Positions 4,170 through 49,906 of a stretch of 64,000 nucleotides of DNA are shown here, piece after piece; position 1 is the first letter of the stretch; every line of letters begins with the position of its first letter. Location of the stretch: NCBI GenBank assembly GCA_041690135.1, contig JAWLHY010000002.1:224001-288000 (forward strand), in the 5' to 3' direction. The position numbers were made by a program, and so were the translations under genes. Source of the DNA: Armatimonadota bacterium. GTDB lineage: Bacteria; Armatimonadota; SYMT01. Under the pieces are notes generated by a model that ran no database searches, was not told the DNA's origin, and saw only the letters and a program-made list of their open reading frames with translations.

Positions 4170-5123
4170 TTAAAGGAGCTCGCGAGCGGCGCGGACTACG
4201 TTCTGGTAGTTCATGCCGTACTTCTCGAGCAGCGCGGCCGGCGAGCCGGACTCGGCGAACTGGTCGCCCAGGTTCACGAAGCGCATCGGCACGGGGTGGT
4301 TCGCGGCAATCGCCATGGAGACGGCGCTGCCCAGGCCGCCGTGGGCCAGGTGCTCTTCCACCACCACCACCTTCCCGGTCTCCCGGGCGGCCTTGGTGAT
4401 CGCTTCCACGTCCAGCGGCTTCACGGTGTGGACGTCCAGGACGCGCACGGATGCGCCGTCCTTCTCCAGGGCGGCGGCGGCTTCCAGGGCGGCGGCAACC
4501 ATCAGCCCGTTGGTGATGATCGTGAGGTCGCTGCCGTCGCGGAGCTGGTTCGCCTTGCCCAGGGTCCACTCCGCGCCGTCCTGGTAAATCACGGGCGCGT
4601 TGGGGCGGCCGGTGCGCAGGTAGGCGGGGCCCTTCAGCGCGTGGATGGCGCGCACGGCGGCGCGGCAGGAGTACTCGTCGCAGGGGACCACCACCACGAA
4701 CTCCGGCAGGGAGCAGGCGAGGGAGACGTCCTCGATGCCCATCTGGGAGGGGCCGTCCTCACCGATGCTGATGCCGCTGTGGCTGCCGACGACCTTCACG
4801 TCCCACTTCGGGAATGCCACCGACATGCGGAGCTGGTCGTAGGCGTTGGAGACCACGAAGGTGGCAAAGGAGGCGCACCAGGCCTGCTTGCCGGAGGCCG
4901 CGAGGCCCGCCGCCACGCCGACCATGTTGCTCTCGGCGATGCCGACGTTGAAGAACCGGTCCGGGTGGGCCTTGGCGAAGATGTCGGTGCGGGTCGAGTT
5001 GTTCAGGTCGGCGTCGACCACCACGATCGACGGGTCTTCCGCGCCGAGATCCCGCAGGGCCTCGCCGAACGCCACGCGCGTGGCCTTGCCGCTCGTCAGG
5101 CCGATCGTCTTTCCTAGCTCCAT
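4170..5123 (-). CDS. Transketolase C-terminal subunit (pyrimidine-binding/C domain)
   Basis: ATRVAFGEAL, DADLNNST, FFNVGIAESNM, GEDGPSQM, VKPLD, EEH; overlaps the stop of the N-subunit gene. Confidence 0.93.
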   Translation of the reverse strand: MELGKTIGLTSGKATRVAFGEALRDLGAEDPSIVVVDADLNNSTRTDIFAKAHPDRFFNVGIAESNMVGVAAGLAASGKQAWCASFATFVVSNAYDQLRMSVAFPKWDVKVVGSHSGISIGEDGPSQMGIEDVSLACSLPEFVVVVPCDEYSCRAAVRAIHALKGPAYLRTGRPNAPVIYQDGAEWTLGKANQLRDGSDLTIITNGLMVAAALEAAAALEKDGASVRVLDVHTVKPLDVEAITKAARETGKVVVVEEHLAHGGLGSAVSMAIAANHPVPMRFVNLGDQFAESGSPAALLEKYGMNYQNVVRAARELL

Positions 5124-39464: not shown

Positions 39465-39536
<72 letters not shown>

Positions 39537-39573
39537 GTATTCCATCCATTCGACTGCTAGCCAGGACTAACAG

Positions 39574-39655
39574 TGGGCGAGGTGGGACTTGAACCCACAC
39601 GGTTTGCACCACTAGATCCTAAGTCTAGCGCGTCTGCCAATTCCGCCACTCACCC
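39574..39655 (-). tRNA. tRNA-Leu(TAG)
   Basis: GGGTGAGTGGCGGAATTGGCAGACGCGCTAGACTTAGGATCTAG..., long variable arm, GGTTCAAGTCC. Confidence 0.96.
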
Positions 39656-39677
39656 GAAGGCCCGGATCGACTGACGA

Positions 39678-39750
<73 letters not shown>

Positions 39751-41837: not shown

Positions 41838-41920
41838 GCTGTGACTCTCGTCACTTCGCGGCCGTCCGTGCAGAGATCCCCCGGATAACATCTGTTCAGC
41901 GAGGTTTCCTCGCTAACTCG

Positions 41921-42057
41921 ACGCCTAATCCCACCAGGGAACGGGGGACCCAACCCCAGGGGCTAAGGACGCTTTCCTCCGCTTCCGCCGGAGGCCGTTC
42001 CGGGTGACTCTTCCTACCCGCGCCCGTCAGCTAACCTCGTCGGCGTGGTGTGAAGAG
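41921..42057 (+). promoter_or_regulatory. c-di-AMP (ydaO/yuaA) riboswitch
   Basis: CGCCTAATCCC..GGGAACGGGGGACCCA...GGGGCTAA...GGG.GACTCTTC..CCCG..CCCGTCAGCTAACCTCGTCGGCG..GAAGAG matches the class consensus, including the CTCTTC/GAAGAG pseudoknot. Confidence 0.9.
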
Positions 42058-42215
42058 ATCGCAGGTGCGCGCCGTGGTTTCCGGAACCCCAAGAGGCTCC
42101 GGTAGGTTTCCGGCGCCTGCCCCGCGCGCTTTCCCGCCACGCGTTCCGCGTGGCTTTTGTGTTTTCTGCAGCGCGTGCGGCAGCCTGCCCTGCCTGGCTG
42201 ATGAAAGGAACATGC

Positions 42216-43448
42216 ATGTTTAATGCTACCGAACCGGCTTCCCCCGGGTTGGTGCCGCTCCAGTCCCTGCTTCCCGCGCCCGCGTCCCCCCTCGACGGGG
42301 AGAGCGCCGTTCGCGCTTCGGTCCGCACTTCCGCTACGGTCAAGAACCGCTCCGCCATCCGCAAGGTCCGCTACATCCGCAGCGTGGACCAGATCGAGAA
42401 GATCTCGGAAGCCGATCGCGAGCTGTTGCGCGAGGTGAGCAAGAAGTATGCCTTCCGCGCCAACGATTACTACCTCAGCCTGATCGACTGGTCCGATCCC
42501 CAGGACCCGATCCGTCAGCTCATCATCCCGCGCCGGGAGGAGCTGAGCGACTGGGGCCGCCTCGACGCGTCCAACGAGGCGGCCGTTACCGTGGCCCGGG
42601 GCGTGCAGCACAAGTACCCGCACACGGTCCTGCTGCTTTGCAACGAAACCTGCGGCGCCTACTGCCGGTACTGCTTCCGCAAGCGGCTCTTCATGAACGA
42701 CAACGAGGAGGTGTCGCTCGACGTCTCGGCGGGGATCCGCTACATCGCCGCGAACCCGCAGGTGACCAACGTTCTGCTCACCGGCGGGGACCCGCTCATT
42801 CTGGCGACCCGCCGCCTCACGGAGATTCTCCGGGCGCTGCGGGAAATTCCGCACGTTCAGATCATCCGGATCGGCACCAAGATGCCGGCGTTCAACCCGT
42901 GGCGGGTGCTGGACGATCCGGACCTGCTGAACGCGGTCGAGACTTACTCCACCACGGAGAAGCGGATCTACGTCATGGCGCACTTCGACCACCCGCGGGA
43001 GTTGACCGAGCCCGCGGTGGAGGGCATCGCCGCGCTCCTCCGGGCGGGCGCCATCTGCGTGAACCAGTGCCCGCTCATCCGCGGCGTGAACGACGATGCC
43101 GAAGTACTGGCCGCGATGTTCCGGAAGCTCTCCTTCATCGGCTGCCCGCAGTATTACCTGTTCCAGGGGCGGCCGACGGCGGGAAATGAGCCGTACGAAC
43201 TGCCGATCGCGCGGGGCTACGCGCTGTTCGAGGCGGCCAAGAAGCAGGTCTCCGGACTGGCGAAGCGGGCGCGTTACTGCATGTCTCACGAGAGCGGCAA
43301 GATCGAGATCGTCGGGATGGACGCCCGCCACTTCTACCTGCGTTACCACCGGGCGAAGAACCCGGCGGACGAAGGCCGGTTTATGGTCTTCCAGCGGGAC
43401 GACGAGGCGTACTGGCTCGACGATCTGAAGCCGGTGGAGGTGAACTGA
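42216..43448 (+). CDS. KamA-family radical SAM aminomutase-like enzyme
   Basis: YYLSLID..DP.DPIRQ, HKYP, CxxxCxxC (CGAYCRYC) FRKR, TGGDPL, IRIGTK, HFDHPRE, NQCPLIRGVND, YYLFQ, SGKIEI; GAAAGGA RBS. Confidence 0.92.
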   Translation: MFNATEPASPGLVPLQSLLPAPASPLDGESAVRASVRTSATVKNRSAIRKVRYIRSVDQIEKISEADRELLREVSKKYAFRANDYYLSLIDWSDPQDPIRQLIIPRREELSDWGRLDASNEAAVTVARGVQHKYPHTVLLLCNETCGAYCRYCFRKRLFMNDNEEVSLDVSAGIRYIAANPQVTNVLLTGGDPLILATRRLTEILRALREIPHVQIIRIGTKMPAFNPWRVLDDPDLLNAVETYSTTEKRIYVMAHFDHPRELTEPAVEGIAALLRAGAICVNQCPLIRGVNDDAEVLAAMFRKLSFIGCPQYYLFQGRPTAGNEPYELPIARGYALFEAAKKQVSGLAKRARYCMSHESGKIEIVGMDARHFYLRYHRAKNPADEGRFMVFQRDDEAYWLDDLKPVEVN

Positions 43449-43451
43449 CGC

Positions 43452-44651
43452 ATGCAGAGCCACGAGCGCATCTCGGCGAAGCTGGAGAAGTTCCGCCCCT
43501 CGCTCACCCTGGCGCTCAAACAACTGGTCGAGGACCGGAAGGCCGCGGGCCTTCCGGTCTACGACTTCGGGCTGGGCGAAACGAAGGGCGAGCTGGACGA
43601 CGATATCCGGGAGGCGGGCATCCGGGCCTTCCGGGACGGCGACACGATGTACGCCAACCCGGGCGGCATTCCCGAGCTGCGCGAAGCGATTCTGGAGTGG
43701 TTGGGGCTGCAAGGCCAGTACGACCCGGAGTGCGTGGTGGTGACGGCCGGGGCGAAGCAGAGCCTGTTCAACGTTTTCCTGGCGCTCTGCAACCCGGCGG
43801 ACGGGGTACTCTTCGATGCCGCCCCGTGGGTGAGTTACCAGCCCCTGGCGGTCGCCGCCTACGCGTTCCCCGTGATGGCGCTGCCGTTCTACTCCGAGTG
43901 GCTCAAGGTCACGCCGGAGGATCTGGAGCGCAACTTCAGCACCCGGCCGCTCAAGCTGTTTCTGCTGAACAACCCCTGTAACCCCACCGCCCAGCTTTAC
44001 GACGCGGACGAACTGGAAGCGCTGCTGAGGGTCTGCGTGAAACATCGGGTCTATTTCGTCCTCGACCGCCTCTACTGGCGGATCCTGTTCGACGGGCGCG
44101 AGTACCCCGAGCCGCGGATAGATGAAGAAACGAAACCGTGGCTGATCCAGGTAGACGGGCTCTCCAAGAACTGGCGGCGCACCGGCGGCCTGCGTGTCGG
44201 CTGGTCCGTGGCGCCGCCGGACGTGGCGCGGGCCATGACCAACCTCCAGAGCCACTATACGGCGGGTCCGGCGGTGCCCACCCAGTATGCCGCCCTGGCC
44301 GCCATCAGCGGGGAGTACAACGACAGCCTCGTGCGGGAGCTGGAGGCGAAGCGCAACCTGCTGCAGGAGCACGCGCAGGGACTCCCCGGCGTGCAGGTGT
44401 GGCCCACGCCGGCGACCTTCTACTCCTTCTGGAACGTGCGGTCGCTGGTCGGCTGCCGGACCCCGGATGGGGAGCTGCTGCGGACCTCCGATGACATCGC
44501 CTCCTATCTTTGCCGGAGTGAGGGGGTGGTGACCGCGAGTGGCGGGGCCTTCCTGCAGGACGGTTATCTCCGGCTGAGTTTCGCGACCAGCGACGAACAG
44601 ATCATCGGCGGCATGGAGGCGGCGCGGAAAGCGCTGGCGGCACTCACCTGA
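43452..44651 (+). CDS. PLP-dependent aminotransferase class I/II
   Basis: GIPELREAI, TAGAKQSL, PWVSY, NNPCNPT, GLSK (PLP Lys), GLRVGW, YLRLSFA. Confidence 0.93.
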   Translation: MQSHERISAKLEKFRPSLTLALKQLVEDRKAAGLPVYDFGLGETKGELDDDIREAGIRAFRDGDTMYANPGGIPELREAILEWLGLQGQYDPECVVVTAGAKQSLFNVFLALCNPADGVLFDAAPWVSYQPLAVAAYAFPVMALPFYSEWLKVTPEDLERNFSTRPLKLFLLNNPCNPTAQLYDADELEALLRVCVKHRVYFVLDRLYWRILFDGREYPEPRIDEETKPWLIQVDGLSKNWRRTGGLRVGWSVAPPDVARAMTNLQSHYTAGPAVPTQYAALAAISGEYNDSLVRELEAKRNLLQEHAQGLPGVQVWPTPATFYSFWNVRSLVGCRTPDGELLRTSDDIASYLCRSEGVVTASGGAFLQDGYLRLSFATSDEQIIGGMEAARKALAALT

Positions 44652-45910
44652 TGAACACACGCAGTAGTCATCGCCTGCTAATCGGCATCGTGGCCGCCAT
44701 TGCGCTGGCCTTCCTGGGGATCACCCTGTTCGGCCCGCGGATGGCCGCCTTCGCCTGGATGGGGACCCTTTTCCTGAAGGCCCTGAAGATGCTGATCATC
44801 CCACTCGTGGTGTCTTCGATGGTGGTCGGTATCACCTCGCTTGGCGACGTCCGCCGCCTCGGGCGGGTGGGGCTGTTGACGCTGGGGTACTACACGGCGA
44901 CCACGGGAATCGCGGTGGGTCTTGGCATCCTGTTCGTGAACCTGATCCGCCCGGGGGCCGGCATGCCGCTGGATAACCTGGTGGTTCCGGAGCGGGTTGA
45001 GGGCAAGGAGGTGTTGGGCGCGCAGGACCTGATCCTCTCCTTCGTGTCGGACAACATCGTGAAGTCGATGGCGGAGATGGACGTCCTGCCGGTAATCGTC
45101 TTTTCGCTCCTCCTCGGCGGCATCCTGACGACGATGGAAGAGCGCGGGCGGCCGGTCATCGCCTTTTTCGAGGCCCTGAACGAGGCGGTGATGAAGATGG
45201 TCCACTTGCTGATGTACCTGGTGCCGTTCGGGGTGTTCGGGCTGGTGGCGGGGCGCTTCGCGGACACCGGGGATCTCCTGCGGGCCGCGACCGCACTGGG
45301 GAAATACATGGGCACCGTCCTCGCGGGGCTGGCGGTCCATGGCCTGGTGGTCCTCCCGCTCCTTCTGTGGCTTTTTGGTCGCCGGAGCCCGCTGCGCTAC
45401 CTGGGGAACATGGGCGCGGCTCTGCTGACCGCGTTCTCCACCGCTTCCTCTTCGGCTACCCTCCCGCTGACGATCCAGTGCGCGGAGGAGAAGAACGGGG
45501 TGTCGAAGCGGTCCGCCTACTTCGTGCTGCCGCTGGGCGCGACCGTGAATATGGACGGGACTGCCCTTTACGAGGCGGTCGCCGCCATCTTCATCGCGCA
45601 GGCGGTCGGCATGACGCTGGGGATGGAGCAGCAGGTGATCATCTTCCTCACTGCCACGCTCGCGGCCATCGGCGCGGCGGGCATACCCGAGGCCGGCCTG
45701 GTGACGATGGTGATTGTACTACGGGCCGTCGGCCTCCCGCTGGAGGGGATCGGCCTGATCCTGGCCGTGGACTGGCTGCTCGATCGCTTCCGCACCACCA
45801 TCAACGTTTGGGGCGATGCGGTCGGGGCCGCAATCGTGGACCGGGTAGCAACGGACGGCAAATGGATGCCGGCGGCCGCCCCGGAAGTGAAACCGGTGCA
45901 CTCCGGGTAG
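44651..45910 (+). CDS. Dicarboxylate/amino acid:cation symporter (DAACS, GltP/GltT-like)
   Basis: FLKALKMLIIPLV, AFSTASSSATLP, PLGATVNMDGTALY, IGAAGIP, DWLLDRFRT..NV.GD; TGATG coupling to the aminotransferase. Confidence 0.95.
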   Translation: MNTRSSHRLLIGIVAAIALAFLGITLFGPRMAAFAWMGTLFLKALKMLIIPLVVSSMVVGITSLGDVRRLGRVGLLTLGYYTATTGIAVGLGILFVNLIRPGAGMPLDNLVVPERVEGKEVLGAQDLILSFVSDNIVKSMAEMDVLPVIVFSLLLGGILTTMEERGRPVIAFFEALNEAVMKMVHLLMYLVPFGVFGLVAGRFADTGDLLRAATALGKYMGTVLAGLAVHGLVVLPLLLWLFGRRSPLRYLGNMGAALLTAFSTASSSATLPLTIQCAEEKNGVSKRSAYFVLPLGATVNMDGTALYEAVAAIFIAQAVGMTLGMEQQVIIFLTATLAAIGAAGIPEAGLVTMVIVLRAVGLPLEGIGLILAVDWLLDRFRTTINVWGDAVGAAIVDRVATDGKWMPAAAPEVKPVHSG

Positions 45911-46005
45911 TGCCTACCGCATAGGAGCTTACAAGACCTATTTTCTATCCCATGGCGCAGCGGCCAATTGGGGCCGTATTCGCCGCATTTGAAAGGAGCA
46001 GACCC

Positions 46006-46566
46006 ATAGCACGCTTCAAGAGAAGCTATCAGAGACTCCCCCAGGACCTGGGGCCGCGCAGAAACTACCGCATCCGCATTCCCGCGGTGCGCGTGATCGA
46101 CGCCGAGGGCAACCAGCTCGGCGTAATGGAGACCCGGGAAGCGCTCCAACTGGCGCAGCAGGCCGGGCTCGACCTGGTGGAAGTGGCTCCCCAAGCCCAG
46201 CCGCCCGTGTGTCGCATCCTCGACTACGGCAAACACACCTACGAGCAGGCGAAGCGCCAGCGGGAGGCGCGCCGCCAGCAGCAGGAGAGCGGCACGGTCC
46301 GCAGCGGCGGCATCAAAGGGGTCCGGATCCGCTTTGGCACGGATAGCGGAGACCTGGATTACCGCGTCAAAGACGCCCGGCGTTTCCTGGAAGAGGGCAA
46401 CAAGGTGGAGGTGACCCTCCTCTTCCGCGGGAGGGAGCGCACCCATCCCGAAATCGCGGAAGCCCAGTTGAGCCGCATCTCCGAGGCGCTGGTCGACATC
46501 GCCATGGTGGAGCAGACGCCTCGCGTTGACGGTCGCCGCATGACCATGCTCCTCGCACCGCGCTAG
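46006..46566 (+). CDS. infC: Translation initiation factor IF-3, probable ATA start
   Basis: N.RIR...VRVIDAEGNQLGVM, LDLVEVAP.A.PPVCRILDYGK, FLEEGNKV.VTL.FRGRE; GAAAGGAG lies 7 nt before the in-frame ATA at 46006. Confidence 0.93.
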   Translation: MARFKRSYQRLPQDLGPRRNYRIRIPAVRVIDAEGNQLGVMETREALQLAQQAGLDLVEVAPQAQPPVCRILDYGKHTYEQAKRQREARRQQQESGTVRSGGIKGVRIRFGTDSGDLDYRVKDARRFLEEGNKVEVTLLFRGRERTHPEIAEAQLSRISEALVDIAMVEQTPRVDGRRMTMLLAPR

Positions 46567-49355
46567 GGACTTACCCGTAGGACGACGATGGCGATGTCGT
46601 CCGCGGGATGGCCGTGCTGGAACTCCAGCACGGCCCGCTCGATGCGCCGGACGATTTCCTGGGCATCGCAGCCGGCGCACTCACGGACGAGGGCCTCCAG
46701 GCGCTCCTCGCCAAAGAGTTTGCCGCCGGTCCGCGCTTCGGTGACCCCGTCCGTATAGAAGATCACTGCGTCCCCAGCGGACAACTCCACGGCCCGGTCC
46801 TTCAGCTCGATTGCCGGCTGGAGACCCAGCATGAAACCCGGTTGATCCAGCCGCTCGAACGATCCGTTGCGCCGGAGGACCAGGGGGGGAAGATGTCCGG
46901 CCGAGGAGAACCGCAGCCGGGCCTTCCTTTGCAGCGGCGTGAACCGCGCGCAGAGGGCTGTGGAGTAGTATTCGCCGGCAATCTGGTCCATGATCATCGC
47001 ATTTGCTTGGGCGAGGATCTGGGCCGGCCACCGTAAACGCACTGCCAGGGCGCGTATCGTGTGCCGGATCAGGGACGTGATGGTGGCGGCCGAGGGACCC
47101 TTTCCGGTAACGTCCCCGATGACGACGGTCCAACTCCCGCCGGGAGTCTCGAACAGGTCGTAGAAGTCGCCCCCCACCTCGATCCCTTCTCCCGCCGCGC
47201 GGTAGGCGGCGGCGACCTCCAGGCCGGGGATCTGGGGAAGCGTGGGCGGGAGCAGGTTCTGCTGCAGGGTACGGGCGATCTCCTGTTGGACCCGGTACAG
47301 ACGCGCGTTGTCGAGCGCCAGGGCCGCCGTCCGGGCCAGTTCCTCGGCGACCTCCAGGTCGTCCCGGCTGAAGGGACGCTCCGGGGTCGTGCGGACGAAG
47401 GTGATCGCGCCCAGCACCCGATCGCGCGCCATCAACGGGGCGCACATCAGGGCCTGCGGGTGCAACTCTTGCAGCATCAGCAGTTCGGCCGGGTAACGCG
47501 CCTGGAGAATGGAGGCCAGGCGCGCGGGATCGGCAAAGAGCGCGGGCCGTCCGGAGGGAGCCTCGCCTGCCATATCGATCAGGCCACGGTGCTCCGTGGG
47601 GTAGTGGACTTCCTCCACTGCCACGACTCCCGATTCGGCGTCGGCCAGCCGAGCACAGAGGCGGCGGATGGAATGATCCGGCTCCAGCACGTCGACGACA
47701 CAGTGGTCACCCAGTAGAGGGACGGCCAGGCGGGCCATCCTCTCGACCGTGCTCCGGTAATCGAGCGACGAGGAGAGCACCCGGCCGGTCCTCAGGAGAA
47801 ACAGCAGGCGATCCCGCGCCGCCGCCATCTCCTCCCGGGCCGCACGTTCCCGTTCCAACAGGGCGGCATTCTCCGCCTCTCGCCGTTTTCGCTCGGTGAT
47901 GTCGCGCGCGATGCCGAAGATGCCGGTGACTCGTCCCTCGATCTGGATCGGTACGGTGGTGACCTCTAGCTCGACCCGTTGCCCGGAAGCATTGATGATC
48001 GCCGCATCCCGAGACACAGTCGCCCCGTTCAAGGTGAGCAGGAACCCTTCTTCAGCCAGGTCCAGGCGATCGGGTGGAACCAGCTCCGAAAAGAAGCGCC
48101 CGAGCAGCTCCTCTCGGCAAAAACCCGAGATCCGTTCGCCAGCCGGATTGCAGTCCACCAGCCGGCCCTCGGGATCCAGGGTGAATACGGCGTCGGTGTT
48201 CAGGTCGATCAGGCAGCGGAGCCGTTGCTCGTTTTCCTGAATCTGCTGTTCCCAGCGCTTCCGGTCGGTAATATCGGTGACGACGGCGCAGGCCGCGGCG
48301 AGCTTCCCGCTCTCATCCAGGACCGGGCGCGCGGAAAGGATGCCCCACCCTTCCGAACCGTCGGGGCGATGAAAGCGGAAATCGCGGTGATCGCCATCGC
48401 CTCGACGCAAATGCTCCAGCAGGCCTTCGAGCTCCGCGCGGTCCTCGGTCGGGAGCAACTCCAGTACCGGACGGCCCAGTATCTCTTCGCGGGCCCAGCC
48501 GAGCATCTGGGCGAGCCTGGGGTTGAGATAATCGCTGCGGCCCTCCGCGTCCAGGCTCCAGAGGCCCTCCTGCGCCAGTTCCGCGATGCGGCGGAACCGC
48601 TCCTCGCTGGCGCGCAGCGCCTCCTCGGAACGTTTACGAGGCGTGATCTCCAGCGAGATACCCAGGACGCGTCCGCCACCCGGTCTCCCGGTCGGCTGAA
48701 TCTGCAGCAGATCCCACCACCACTGGATCTCCCCCTCGGGCAGGTGAACAGGATACTCGATGTGTCGCCACCGGTCGTGACCGTTGGCCGCCGGCCGTAT
48801 TGCGGTGAGGAGGCGCGGTCGGTCTTCCTCGGGAATGCCGTGGAAAAACGGGTGCGGTTGCCGGAAGCAGCGGCGGGCAGTACCGAAAATCCGGTCGGCT
48901 AGGGGACAGGACTGGTGGACCATGCTGGCGGCGCGCCCCCCTTCCCAGAGGACGAGGCTAGGCGCATTCTCCGGAATGCCGGGTGCCGGTGCCTGGGCCG
49001 GAGAAGGATCGGGGTCCCGCAGGGCGCGCAGCGCGGCCTCACGGGTGGTAAACAGGGGCAGGCCTTGTTCCCAGCGGAGGAGCTCCAACGGACGGCAGAC
49101 CCAGCGGTTGCCGCCGGTAACCACCCCCCATGGCACGCCCTCCGCCGTCGCCTCGTGGTGGAGCCGGAGGAGGAGCCGGGCACCGCGACCATCGAGGAAC
49201 GTGATGCGGCTCAAATCGACCAGCACCACCGGCGGTCGCGACTCGAGCACCGTCCTCCAGCGGGAATGTACCTGTGACACCCGGCTGAGATCGAGATCTC
49301 CGATCAACACCAACCCGACGTAGCCAACCGCGCGCACCACGTCCAGATGGAACAC
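46563..49355 (-). CDS. STAS-PAS-PAS-GAF-PP2C (SpoIIE-type) phosphatase, paralog 1
   Basis: GDLD/VDLSRITFLDGRG STAS, PAS repeats ending DITxRK, GAF (ALALDNARLY), LQQNLLP, VGGDFYD, GDVTGKG, AGH, YTDGVTE, DD; GTG start after GGGAGG aligns with paralog 2. Confidence 0.9.
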   Translation of the reverse strand: MFHLDVVRAVGYVGLVLIGDLDLSRVSQVHSRWRTVLESRPPVVLVDLSRITFLDGRGARLLLRLHHEATAEGVPWGVVTGGNRWVCRPLELLRWEQGLPLFTTREAALRALRDPDPSPAQAPAPGIPENAPSLVLWEGGRAASMVHQSCPLADRIFGTARRCFRQPHPFFHGIPEEDRPRLLTAIRPAANGHDRWRHIEYPVHLPEGEIQWWWDLLQIQPTGRPGGGRVLGISLEITPRKRSEEALRASEERFRRIAELAQEGLWSLDAEGRSDYLNPRLAQMLGWAREEILGRPVLELLPTEDRAELEGLLEHLRRGDGDHRDFRFHRPDGSEGWGILSARPVLDESGKLAAACAVVTDITDRKRWEQQIQENEQRLRCLIDLNTDAVFTLDPEGRLVDCNPAGERISGFCREELLGRFFSELVPPDRLDLAEEGFLLTLNGATVSRDAAIINASGQRVELEVTTVPIQIEGRVTGIFGIARDITERKRREAENAALLERERAAREEMAAARDRLLFLLRTGRVLSSSLDYRSTVERMARLAVPLLGDHCVVDVLEPDHSIRRLCARLADAESGVVAVEEVHYPTEHRGLIDMAGEAPSGRPALFADPARLASILQARYPAELLMLQELHPQALMCAPLMARDRVLGAITFVRTTPERPFSRDDLEVAEELARTAALALDNARLYRVQQEIARTLQQNLLPPTLPQIPGLEVAAAYRAAGEGIEVGGDFYDLFETPGGSWTVVIGDVTGKGPSAATITSLIRHTIRALAVRLRWPAQILAQANAMIMDQIAGEYYSTALCARFTPLQRKARLRFSSAGHLPPLVLRRNGSFERLDQPGFMLGLQPAIELKDRAVELSAGDAVIFYTDGVTEARTGGKLFGEERLEALVRECAGCDAQEIVRRIERAVLEFQHGHPADDIAIVVLRVSP

Positions 49356-49906
49356 ATCGCCCTCCCGCATACCCTGGAGCAACAGCCGCCAACTCCCCGA
49401 GGCCGGAGCCAAGCGGGGTTTTGCACGAAATGCGCCGCACTTCCCCTCCGGAACTTCCGGAACACAGGGTCGATCCTTCCGCACCTCGTGGTGTGCGGAG
49501 AGATCTGTCGGCCATGTTCGATTTCGTGTGGATCCAAACCGGGAGCCGGGTCCCGGAAGTTGGTGCCGCGCACTGTGGCGCGGCTAGCCGTCGTTGCGGC
49601 CTTGTTGTTGTCCGTCGCGGGGTGGTGTTGATTTGGGTGCTCTTGCCTCCTGCCGCTCACGGCAAGACGGCAACAGCCCCTTGGTTGGTCAGACGCGGAC
49701 TATACCCTGAATGGGTCGCAGGCGCCCGACATGTTAAGACTACAATATGTAAGAGGGAACGTCCATCTTAGCTCCATTCTGAGTTCGGGCTTCCCTGCAT
49801 GTACAGTAACTGGCCGTTCAATCCGGGCGGGGTGAGCGGTAACTATAGAGTTACCCACGCCCGATGCGGATAAACTCGGGAGTCGCGGAGATTCCGGCGA
49901 GGGAAC

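Follow-up and report, generated by a model that had tools for sequence, protein, structure and literature searches.

The window analyzed here is a 64,000-nucleotide stretch of an Armatimonadota genome (GenBank assembly GCA_041690135.1, contig JAWLHY010000002.1, positions 224,001 to 288,000) in which a cyclic di-AMP (c-di-AMP) riboswitch precedes genes for a KamA-family 2,3-aminomutase, a class I aminotransferase, and a carrier for acidic amino acids (Table 1). A reading of the letters alone (the original prediction) had described three tightly coupled genes behind a riboswitch and had proposed them as a system for the osmolyte beta-glutamate. The coupling is evident from a 3-nt spacer between the aminomutase and aminotransferase genes and a 1-nt overlap between the aminotransferase and carrier genes, and the families were confirmed with Pfam and NCBIfam. 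The aminomutase gene likely starts at the ATG at 42216, which has AAAGGA just before it, because the alternative GTG at 42150 falls within a terminator.

Table 1. Coordinates of the operon and of the other features discussed (positions refer to the window or, where an L number is given, to that locus).
Feature	Location	Coordinates	Strand	Basis
c-di-AMP riboswitch aptamer, ydaO class, RF00379	window	41912..42059	+	cmscan
Antiterminator strand GCGUGGUG	window	42043..42050	+	aptamer 3' tail, overlaps 3' strand of P1
Intrinsic terminator, 8-bp stem (7 G-C), 3-nt loop, T-run	window	42136..42164	+	terminator scan
KamA-family radical-SAM/PLP 2,3-aminomutase of the Arg-type R-clade, 410 aa	window	42216..43448	+	ORF, Pfam, alignments, tree
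Class I aminotransferase, AspAT subgroup-Ib-like, 399 aa	window	43452..44651	+	Pfam, NCBIfam, PDB matches
DAACS/SDF acidic-amino-acid carrier, 419 aa	window	44651..45910	+	Pfam, PDB matches
c-di-AMP riboswitches upstream of EAM genes (Bacillota)	L108-L112, L115-L118			R1
nhaA-I riboswitch	L031 (Tepidisphaeraceae)	4837-4889	+	RF03057
nhaA-I riboswitch	L040 (Bacillota metagenome-assembled genome)	4831-4884	+	RF03057
Aptamer of the window's genome before STAS gene	L002	1501-1636	-	RF00379
Aptamer of the window's genome before STAS gene	L003	1501-1634	-	RF00379
Aptamer of the window's genome before STAS gene	L004	1501-1653	+	RF00379
STAS ORF after riboswitch	L002	980-1456	-	
STAS ORF after riboswitch	L003	734-1516	-	
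STAS ORF after riboswitch	L004	2013-2429	+	
Fifth aptamer of the window's genome	L006	1501-1635	+	
ORF after fifth aptamer	L006	1745-2770	+	
infC (IF-3)	window	45952-46566	+	
973-aa STAS-PAS-PAS-GAF-SpoIIE (PP2C phosphatase) protein	window	46563-49484	-	
Three-tRNA cluster	window	39465-39750	-	
Gamma-glutamyltranspeptidase to aminomutase gene string	L042	1361-7835	+	
Paenibacillus gene cluster	L075	893-7585	+	
Tandem c-di-AMP model match	L159	90-259	-	
Tandem c-di-AMP model match	L159	365-559	-	

A ydaO-class riboswitch had been predicted at the head of the operon, and the Rfam covariance search bore this out. cmscan matched RF00379 with 78.6 bits against a gathering threshold of 38 (E 1.4e-16), over model positions 1-134 of 134, and the aptamer can be aligned with the other four of the five RF00379 copies in the window's own genome (G000; 9.1 Mb, 25 contigs). 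A terminator scan placed a hairpin of terminator type at 42136-42154, 77 bases 3' of the aptamer; it has the sequence GCCACGCG-TTC-CGCGTGGC, with TTTTGTGTTT after it, and forms again on folding 42120-42170 (-17.5 kcal/mol, z -2.59). Folding the RNA of 42036-42146 alone paired GCGUGGUG (42043-42050) with CGCCACGC (42135-42142), which is the left arm of the terminator. The computed expression platform consists of a terminator and an alternative helix between the 3' tail of the aptamer and the left arm of that terminator. Because the antiterminator tail overlaps the 3' strand of P1, as assigned from the cmscan structure line, the bound aptamer would free the terminator (OFF) and the unbound aptamer would permit the antiterminator (ON). 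The presence of aptamer, antiterminator, and terminator supports the OFF logic originally proposed, in which the genes would be on when c-di-AMP falls. A diadenylate cyclase, which the original prediction had wanted confirmed in the genome, was found by profile search as one DAC domain (PF02457, 140.4 bits) on contig C8.

Which amino acid would the aminomutase rearrange? The protein carries the Radical_SAM domain of Pfam, and the LAM_C domain was not detected. The models for characterized KamA subfamilies in NCBIfam score it about equally, and all far below cut-off: AblA_like_2 with 225.8 bits (cut-off 396), lysine 2,3-aminomutase (LAM; TIGR03820) with 204.7 (525.4), glutamate 2,3-aminomutase (EAM; TIGR04368) with 204.5 (650), arginine aminomutase with 204.1 (600), and EpmB (TIGR03821) with 164.9 (369.3). 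The subfamily model TIGR00238 is narrowly missed (192.2 bits, or 192.7 in the genome search, versus 199.2), and despite this miss, homologues are labeled 'KamA family radical SAM protein' by NCBI. The ESM Atlas returned 'KamA family' clusters and nothing further. A genome-wide profile search found one KamA-family gene, with no second copy. The nearest solved structure is the LAM 2A5H (phmmer, E 4.5e-51, residues 78-370 aligned to 30-322).

Residues were compared by aligning 112 family members with MAFFT, 91 of them from the Arg-type group to which the window protein belongs (the R-clade). The reference set comprised 4 Bacillaceae LAM genes (approximately 480-496 bits to TIGR00238), 12 EAM genes above the TIGR04368 cut-off, and 5 EpmB genes above theirs, the last taken from the class of G307 (the class of G306 yielded 0 of 26). 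Asp293 of LAM binds the side-chain amine of lysine. The original prediction held that Arg and Ser replace the two lysine-binding Asp residues, which in EAM are Lys and Asn. The EAM part holds in 12 of 12 members above the cut-off: LAM reads YYIYQCD and VVDAPGGGGK, and EAM reads YYIFHAK and I(I/L)NAPxGxGK. The query and its R-clade relatives, including members 36-50% identical to it, read YY.F..R, mostly YYxFQGRPTAGN, and MS-HxxGK. At the first position, phmmer against 2A5H, MAFFT, and HHalign agree in setting YYLFQGR of the window protein opposite YYIYQCD, so that Arg replaces Asp293 as predicted, and Arg occupies this column in 91 of 91 R-clade rows, which argues for an acidic rather than a basic substrate. 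The second position is less simple. Asp is retained in none of the alignments, but the predicted Ser stands opposite Asp330 only in MAFFT (CMS-HESGK versus VVDAPGGGGK), whereas HHalign of two profiles leaves Asp330 in a 2-residue gap (CM--SHESGK). A safe statement would be that Asp330 is gone, the loop is shortened, and an invariant Ser-His is kept in the R-clade. The cluster motif CxxxCxxC, the next Arg, and the pyridoxal phosphate (PLP) Lys are conserved, as CGAYCRYCFRKR and ...SGK align with CSMYCRYCTRRR and ...GGGGK of LAM in both MAFFT and HHalign; we take the roles of these residues to be those of the LAM structure. Because they are conserved, we expect aminomutase chemistry on a free alpha-amino acid throughout the R-clade.

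A phylogeny with LAM, EAM, and EpmB had been suggested as a check, and it set the window protein apart from LAM and EpmB but also placed it outside EAM. In a quick IQ-TREE search (LG+G4, 71 rows, every second R-clade row omitted), 50 R-clade rows lie on one side of a branch with a support of 99 in the SH-like approximate likelihood ratio test (SH-aLRT). LAM, EAM, and other Asp/Asp-type proteins stand together opposite the R-clade (SH-aLRT 97), with EpmB as the outgroup; the program warned of long-branch joins, and the root is uncertain. By this tree the R-clade is a deep, well-supported clade outside LAM and EAM. Membership in the EAM family itself thus had to be given up on score, residues (Arg and the short loop), and tree alike.

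The two partner genes point toward acidic amino acids. The carrier matches PF00375 with 418.3 bits, and its best PDB matches are EAAT1 and EAAT3 (318-331 bits), along with a bacterial aspartate transporter. The NMDGT and D..RT motifs of a DAACS carrier are present as predicted, within an acidic-substrate site of the form NMDGT and D...D..RT, and the stretch AVDWLLDRFRT is identical to that of EAAT1 (phmmer); the score to the GltP equivalog is 226.3 bits versus a cut-off of 638. The aminotransferase matches PF00155 with 149.7 bits, its top NCBIfam model is aspartate transaminase (209.6 bits versus 617), and its best PDB match is the aspartate aminotransferase (AspAT) 6F77 (186 bits). It is closest to AspAT subgroup Ib, with 6F77, the Thermus AspAT, and prephenate aminotransferases. 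The SK, NPxNP, D..Y, and C-terminal R motifs of fold type I are aligned with 6F77 (LSKNW/VSKAY, NPCNPT/NSPSNPS, DRLY/DDMY, and LRLSFATS/FRISYATS), and the DRLY motif that had been called atypical corresponds to DDMY in this solved AspAT. The Lys of the GGKQ/GAKQ motif, which presumably binds the distal carboxylate, is kept. Because the carrier motif equals that of EAAT1 and the aminotransferase is nearest to AspAT Ib, the partners would indicate acidic amino acids.

The aminotransferase had also been proposed to turn over the beta-amino acid, and nothing suggests that it does. Its orthologues (65-72% identity) lack a KamA-like neighbor in 7 of 7 metagenome loci (0.8-4 kb on each side), and we therefore dropped a dedicated, beta-glutamate-specific enzyme as a candidate; for the same reason the protein looks like an ordinary Asp/Glu transaminase recruited to the operon. 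In five R-clade genomes without an adjacent copy, no orthologue was found (best matches of 30-34% in three, none with E<=1e-40 in two).

Do other aminomutase genes share the riboswitch? We searched leaders with Rfam and with R1, a covariance model built from the five aptamers of the window's genome and checked against Rfam only on G027, a Bacillota genome. There, RF00379 (86.1 bits) lies directly 5' of a monocistronic R-clade gene. R-clade genes occur in 5 of 401 Bacillota genomes sampled and in 68 of 201 genomes of the G027 order. Among 30 loci fetched from this order, R1 found the riboswitch in the leader of 25 and, truncated at a contig edge, of 1 more; 3 had no riboswitch and 1 had no upstream DNA, which gives 26 of 29 assessable loci. 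All 30 proteins carry YYFF(V/I)NR and MSH(T/S)SGK, and a crude scan placed a terminator-like hairpin after the gene in 14 of the 30 loci. With the same model, bona fide EAM genes had a riboswitch upstream in 9 of 12 cases, with hallmark aptamer motifs visible. No riboswitch was found upstream of any of 23 LAM-type genes: four LAM genes of Bacillaceae, three others of the Asp/Asp type, and 16 more LAM-type genes drawn from the Bacillota sample, each of these 16 with VDAPxGGGK. R-clade genes of Bacillaceae and Paenibacillus had none in 4. To judge from these sequences, c-di-AMP riboswitch control is common to the R-clade and true EAM and is not shared by LAM. Some of the EAM leaders have long aptamer insertions (192-216 nt in L112, L116, and L117).

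A second riboswitch class marks the clade as well. nhaA-I elements (RF03057), the Li+-I/Na+-II class described in PMC9646797, lie in the 5' leaders of two R-clade genes. The window aptamer scores 112 bits to the copies of its own genome versus 41.7-59.1 bits for the Bacillota ones, and the gene it controls is nearest to riboswitch-free homologues; riboswitch control was therefore probably recruited here independently of the Bacillota cases. The salt or osmolyte role originally proposed gains from these data in that the same clade is preceded by c-di-AMP riboswitches in another phylum, nhaA-I elements occur twice, and EAM but not LAM-type genes carry the c-di-AMP riboswitch; the product remains a prediction. 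Two further matches to the c-di-AMP model, in tandem, lie downstream of an R-clade gene in L159, oriented toward a gene past the locus boundary; they may form a tandem riboswitch.

Homologues of the aminomutase are numerous: of 7999 candidates scored, 7079 have E <= 0.001, and the top 120, from different phyla, have 66-80% identity. We compared 80 related genome loci from Planctomycetota, Acidobacteriota, Myxococcota, Gemmatimonadota, Bacillota, and others. The R-clade is, on these comparisons, large, strongly conserved, and patchily spread. The three genes do not form a conserved system. tblastn placed the aminotransferase next to the aminomutase in 5 of the 80 loci (L010, L013, L021, L022, and L025), with a weak 30% match at L056, and the carrier beside it in none of them. 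We also looked for a conserved neighbor of any kind, and this was rejected when all-against-all ORF clustering and a Pfam tally of 71 downstream ORFs gave lineage-specific synteny only.

Individual neighbors are nevertheless informative. The R-clade gene of L155 overlaps at its stop codon, in an ATGA junction, with a gene for glutamine synthetase (Gln-synt_C, 416 bits), and in L165 a gene for a BCCT osmolyte carrier lies 62 nt downstream within the riboswitch-controlled unit. Genes for a gamma-glutamyltranspeptidase, a 7TM_transglut protein, and a Ddl-like ATP-grasp protein flank the aminomutase gene in nine Phycisphaerae loci and in L079 and L080 (representatives were assigned by Pfam scan and the rest by BLAST clustering), and YheC/D-type ATP-grasp genes are found at L075, L081, and L140. 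We read L155, L165, and the gamma-glutamyltranspeptidase/ATP-grasp neighbors as pointing to glutamate or osmolytes.

The arrangement of these neighbors varies. In L042 and eight other Phycisphaerae loci, the string runs gamma-glutamyltranspeptidase, 7TM_transglut, Ddl-like ATP-grasp, and R-clade aminomutase, and ends with a protein bearing an N-terminal methylation motif; in L079 and L080, an ATP-grasp fusion of ~729 aa is followed by the gamma-glutamyltranspeptidase gene. L075, from Paenibacillus sp. NEAU-GSW1, holds genes for a PAP2 phosphatase, the R-clade aminomutase, a YheC/D ATP-grasp protein, a phosphoenolpyruvate (PEP) mutase, a thiamine pyrophosphate (TPP) decarboxylase, and a class V aminotransferase. 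It looks like a phosphonate (2-aminoethylphosphonate-type) cluster, which may ligate a beta-amino acid; a riboswitch is absent from this locus.

From the RNA elements, gene families, residue pattern, clade, and comparative regulatory pattern observed here, we infer how the RNA responds to its ligand, the substrate and product of the enzyme, the direction in which flux runs, and the role of the operon in the cell. We consider it probable that R-clade enzymes are glutamate 2,3-aminomutases of a second kind and that the operon makes beta-glutamate at low c-di-AMP. With c-di-AMP bound, the aptamer would keep its 3' tail, the terminator at 42136-42164 would form, and transcription would halt. When c-di-AMP is low, as in a cell needing K+ and solutes, the tail would pair with the terminator's left arm, and transcription would proceed through the three genes. 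The EAAT/GltP-like carrier would then take up glutamate or aspartate, and the AspAT-Ib-like transaminase would shift amino groups between aspartate and 2-oxoglutarate and so fill the glutamate pool. The KamA-family enzyme, with its [4Fe-4S]/S-adenosylmethionine (SAM) radical and PLP, would move the 2-amino group to C3, giving beta-glutamate, which would serve as a metabolically inert anionic compatible solute. The operon would thus be a locally assembled set for acidic amino acids under c-di-AMP OFF control.

On a broader version of this proposal our judgment is evenly balanced. It holds that the R-clade is an independently evolved, Arg-type glutamate 2,3-aminomutase, patchily distributed in at least ten phyla by record titles, and that making beta-glutamate or beta-glutamine is a widespread bacterial output of c-di-AMP and Na+/Li+ riboswitches; in some lineages the beta-amino acid would go to ATP-grasp ligases and gamma-glutamyltranspeptidase and give as yet undescribed beta-glutamyl compounds. 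It adds that c-di-AMP riboswitches accompany glutamate aminomutases of either kind but not lysine aminomutases, and that the synthesis of beta-glutamate is not peculiar to methanogens.

Several observations weigh against synthesis of beta-glutamate by the R-clade. The EAM chemistry would not be transferable by homology, because the window enzyme fails the EAM equivalog and lies outside the LAM and EAM clade. A single Arg does not fix the substrate, and 2-aminoadipate, glutamine, or another anionic amino acid would fit. The recurrent ATP-grasp ligase neighbors fit a building-block role as well as a free solute. Among relatives of the window's genome, the R-clade gene is patchy (2 of 40 genomes, and 0 of 6 in the same family). 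RF00379 was found by Rfam in 0 of the 80 related loci, where informative neighbors are mostly absent, and R1 likewise found no riboswitch in these loci or in L130; because of this absence, riboswitch control of the R-clade appears confined to certain lineages. Nor are the riboswitch counts independent, since the genomes behind them are related. The tree makes the genes of L031 and L040 sisters (SH-aLRT 94), and a single event may account for both of their nhaA-I elements. The sequencing runs listed for the locus were three DNA runs with small shares (0.05), with no RNA run among them. Finally, early nuclear magnetic resonance work covered in a 2005 review spoke against beta-glutamate arising through an aminomutase in methanogens (PMC1224877).

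Could the beta-amino acid be a building block rather than a free solute? In this alternative, the main rival but one we consider unlikely, a product derived from glutamate or another anionic source would be used mainly by ATP-grasp ligases to make a peptide, polymer, or envelope component; control by c-di-AMP would reflect the known link of the riboswitch to the cell envelope, and the carrier and transaminase would only supply the precursor. The two ATP-grasp families adjoining R-clade genes, the Ddl-like one with its gamma-glutamyltranspeptidase and 7TM_transglut partners and the YheC/D-like one, are what such a role would leave behind, and another RF00379 copy of the window's genome precedes a secreted NAGPA-domain protein. 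The loci with ATP-grasp neighbors, however, lack the riboswitch, and no ligase lies beside the operon in the window or beside the gene in G027. The riboswitch-controlled gene of the G027 order mostly stands alone, in keeping with the hairpins that follow it, and the BCCT and nhaA-I associations suggest salt stress over envelope synthesis.

It is improbable, in our estimation, that the operon is catabolic or homeostatic and makes no compatible solute. It would then import glutamate, aspartate, or beta-glutamate, with the aminomutase working toward alpha-glutamate or draining glutamate, the transaminase passing carbon to 2-oxoglutarate, and c-di-AMP providing feedback on the homeostasis of glutamate and K+. 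The reactions of 2,3-aminomutases can run both ways, c-di-AMP is linked to glutamate uptake in Bacillus subtilis, and a carrier with a transaminase is typical of utilization operons. An OFF switch relieved at low c-di-AMP nevertheless suits the buildup of a solute better than its removal, and most riboswitch-controlled R-clade and EAM genes have no catabolic partner. An asparaginase/glutaminase gene does lie downstream of the aminomutase gene in L161, but a hairpin with a T-run separates the two, and the BCCT uptake carrier of L165 and the coupled glutamine synthetase of L155 are anabolic or osmoprotective partners.

An ordinary LAM (making beta-lysine or N-epsilon-acetyl-beta-lysine as an osmolyte, or serving lysine fermentation) or an EpmB-type enzyme of elongation factor P is close to refuted and, to us, highly implausible: several metagenome homologues are named 'lysine 2,3-aminomutase', the nearest structure is a LAM, and a published c-di-AMP-controlled gene is annotated ablA (PMC9337991), but both lysine-binding Asp residues are lost, the scores fall far short of what the LAM and EpmB models require, the tree sets the clade apart from both, the riboswitch is absent at all 23 LAM-type loci sampled, no acetyltransferase or lysine-fermentation gene lies nearby, and no EpmA (genX) was found above cut-off in the genome (best match 229 versus 286.9 bits, in a 516-aa frame). 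The original prediction had likewise noted that no efp, epmA, ablB, or lysine-fermentation gene is adjacent, and none was seen: infC comes next downstream, and a Pfam scan of three ORFs on the upstream side gave no match.

The surroundings of the operon include further features. infC, which encodes initiation factor 3 (IF-3), starts 41 nt past the stop codon of the carrier gene, and the scan found no terminator-like site in this gap; transcription of the riboswitch-controlled operon could continue into infC. Beside infC and converging on the operon lies the gene for a 973-aa SpoIIE-type protein, and a cluster of three tRNA genes is located ~2 kb upstream of the riboswitch. Elsewhere in the genome, three of the other four c-di-AMP riboswitches precede small STAS-domain proteins resembling anti-sigma-factor antagonists. 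To our knowledge, STAS proteins have not been described as a class of the ydaO regulon. Together with the 973-aa protein, they suggest an expanded partner-switching network in this genome. Downstream of the fifth riboswitch is the gene for a 342-aa protein that has a hydrophobic stretch at its N terminus and a phosphodiester glycosidase domain (NAGPA, PF09992); this protein is probably envelope related. All five aptamers share the 3' tail GGCGTGG(C/T)G(C/T)GAAGAG.

If the R-clade makes beta-glutamate, a function would be gained for many genes of Planctomycetota, Acidobacteriota, Myxococcota, Gemmatimonadota, Bacillota, and other phyla that now bear the label 'KamA family' or 'lysine 2,3-aminomutase'. 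Radical-SAM enzymology would have a natural case of convergent substrate recognition, Arg versus Lys/Asn, and c-di-AMP signaling would be tied directly to the synthesis of an anionic compatible solute, beyond the transport of K+ and osmolytes. A practical annotation rule would be that the c-di-AMP riboswitch accompanies EAM and R-clade genes and not LAM genes. The question is directly testable in cultivable members of the G027 order, which carry the simple riboswitch-gene unit. We found neither an Arg-type clade nor a c-di-AMP/EAM rule described in the literature searched, where White et al. 2022 (PMC9337991) was the one relevant paper returned; the primary ydaO papers, like every supplement, lay outside this search and may tabulate the association. 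Already in print is c-di-AMP control of one KamA-family gene, annotated ablA (PMC9337991).

How does the operon compare with known systems? With EAM of the Clostridia type, the window enzyme shares the superfamily, CxxxCxxC, the Arg after this motif, the PLP Lys, a cationic residue at the Asp293 position, an upstream c-di-AMP riboswitch, and the proposed reaction. It differs in its low score to the EAM model, ~29-33% identity, the undetected LAM_C domain, Arg versus Lys, the short MSHxxGK loop versus NAPxGxGK, and its place on the opposite side of a strongly supported branch; because of this separation, the function of the R-clade, if the same as that of EAM, would have arisen independently. 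LAM (KamA/AblA) is closest in solved structure and matches in the radical-SAM and PLP motifs, and differs in both Asp positions, in score, and in the lack of upstream c-di-AMP riboswitches at the 23 LAM-type loci sampled. The carrier and aminotransferase resemble GltP/EAAT carriers and AspAT Ib in family scores and substrate-site motifs, and differ in scoring below the equivalogs and in combining riboswitch control with an aminomutase, which none of the 80 related loci do.

A published system close to the operon is that of Dehalobacter sp. CF, in which a tandem Na+-I/c-di-AMP riboswitch precedes a gene annotated ablA (White et al. 2022, PMC9337991). In both, a KamA-family gene read as serving osmolyte synthesis is under a c-di-AMP OFF switch that has a terminator of its own, and the antiterminator joins the right shoulder of P1 to the terminator's left arm. 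The window differs in having a single riboswitch with no Na+ aptamer and a three-gene operon; the Dehalobacter gene is taken as a lysine enzyme in that paper. Na+ riboswitches have been reported with both ablA and eam (PMC9337991). Beta-glutamate is itself an established anionic compatible solute, and the ablA-ablB and beta-glutamate systems of methanogens likewise supply a salt-responsive beta-amino-acid solute by way of a 2,3-aminomutase (PMC1224877). The window departs from ablA-ablB in lacking an acetyltransferase partner, in belonging to a bacterium, in its riboswitch control, and in its different expected substrate. Glutamine synthetase turns beta-glutamate into beta-glutamine (PMC1224877), and this route matches the overlapping aminomutase and glutamine synthetase genes of L155.

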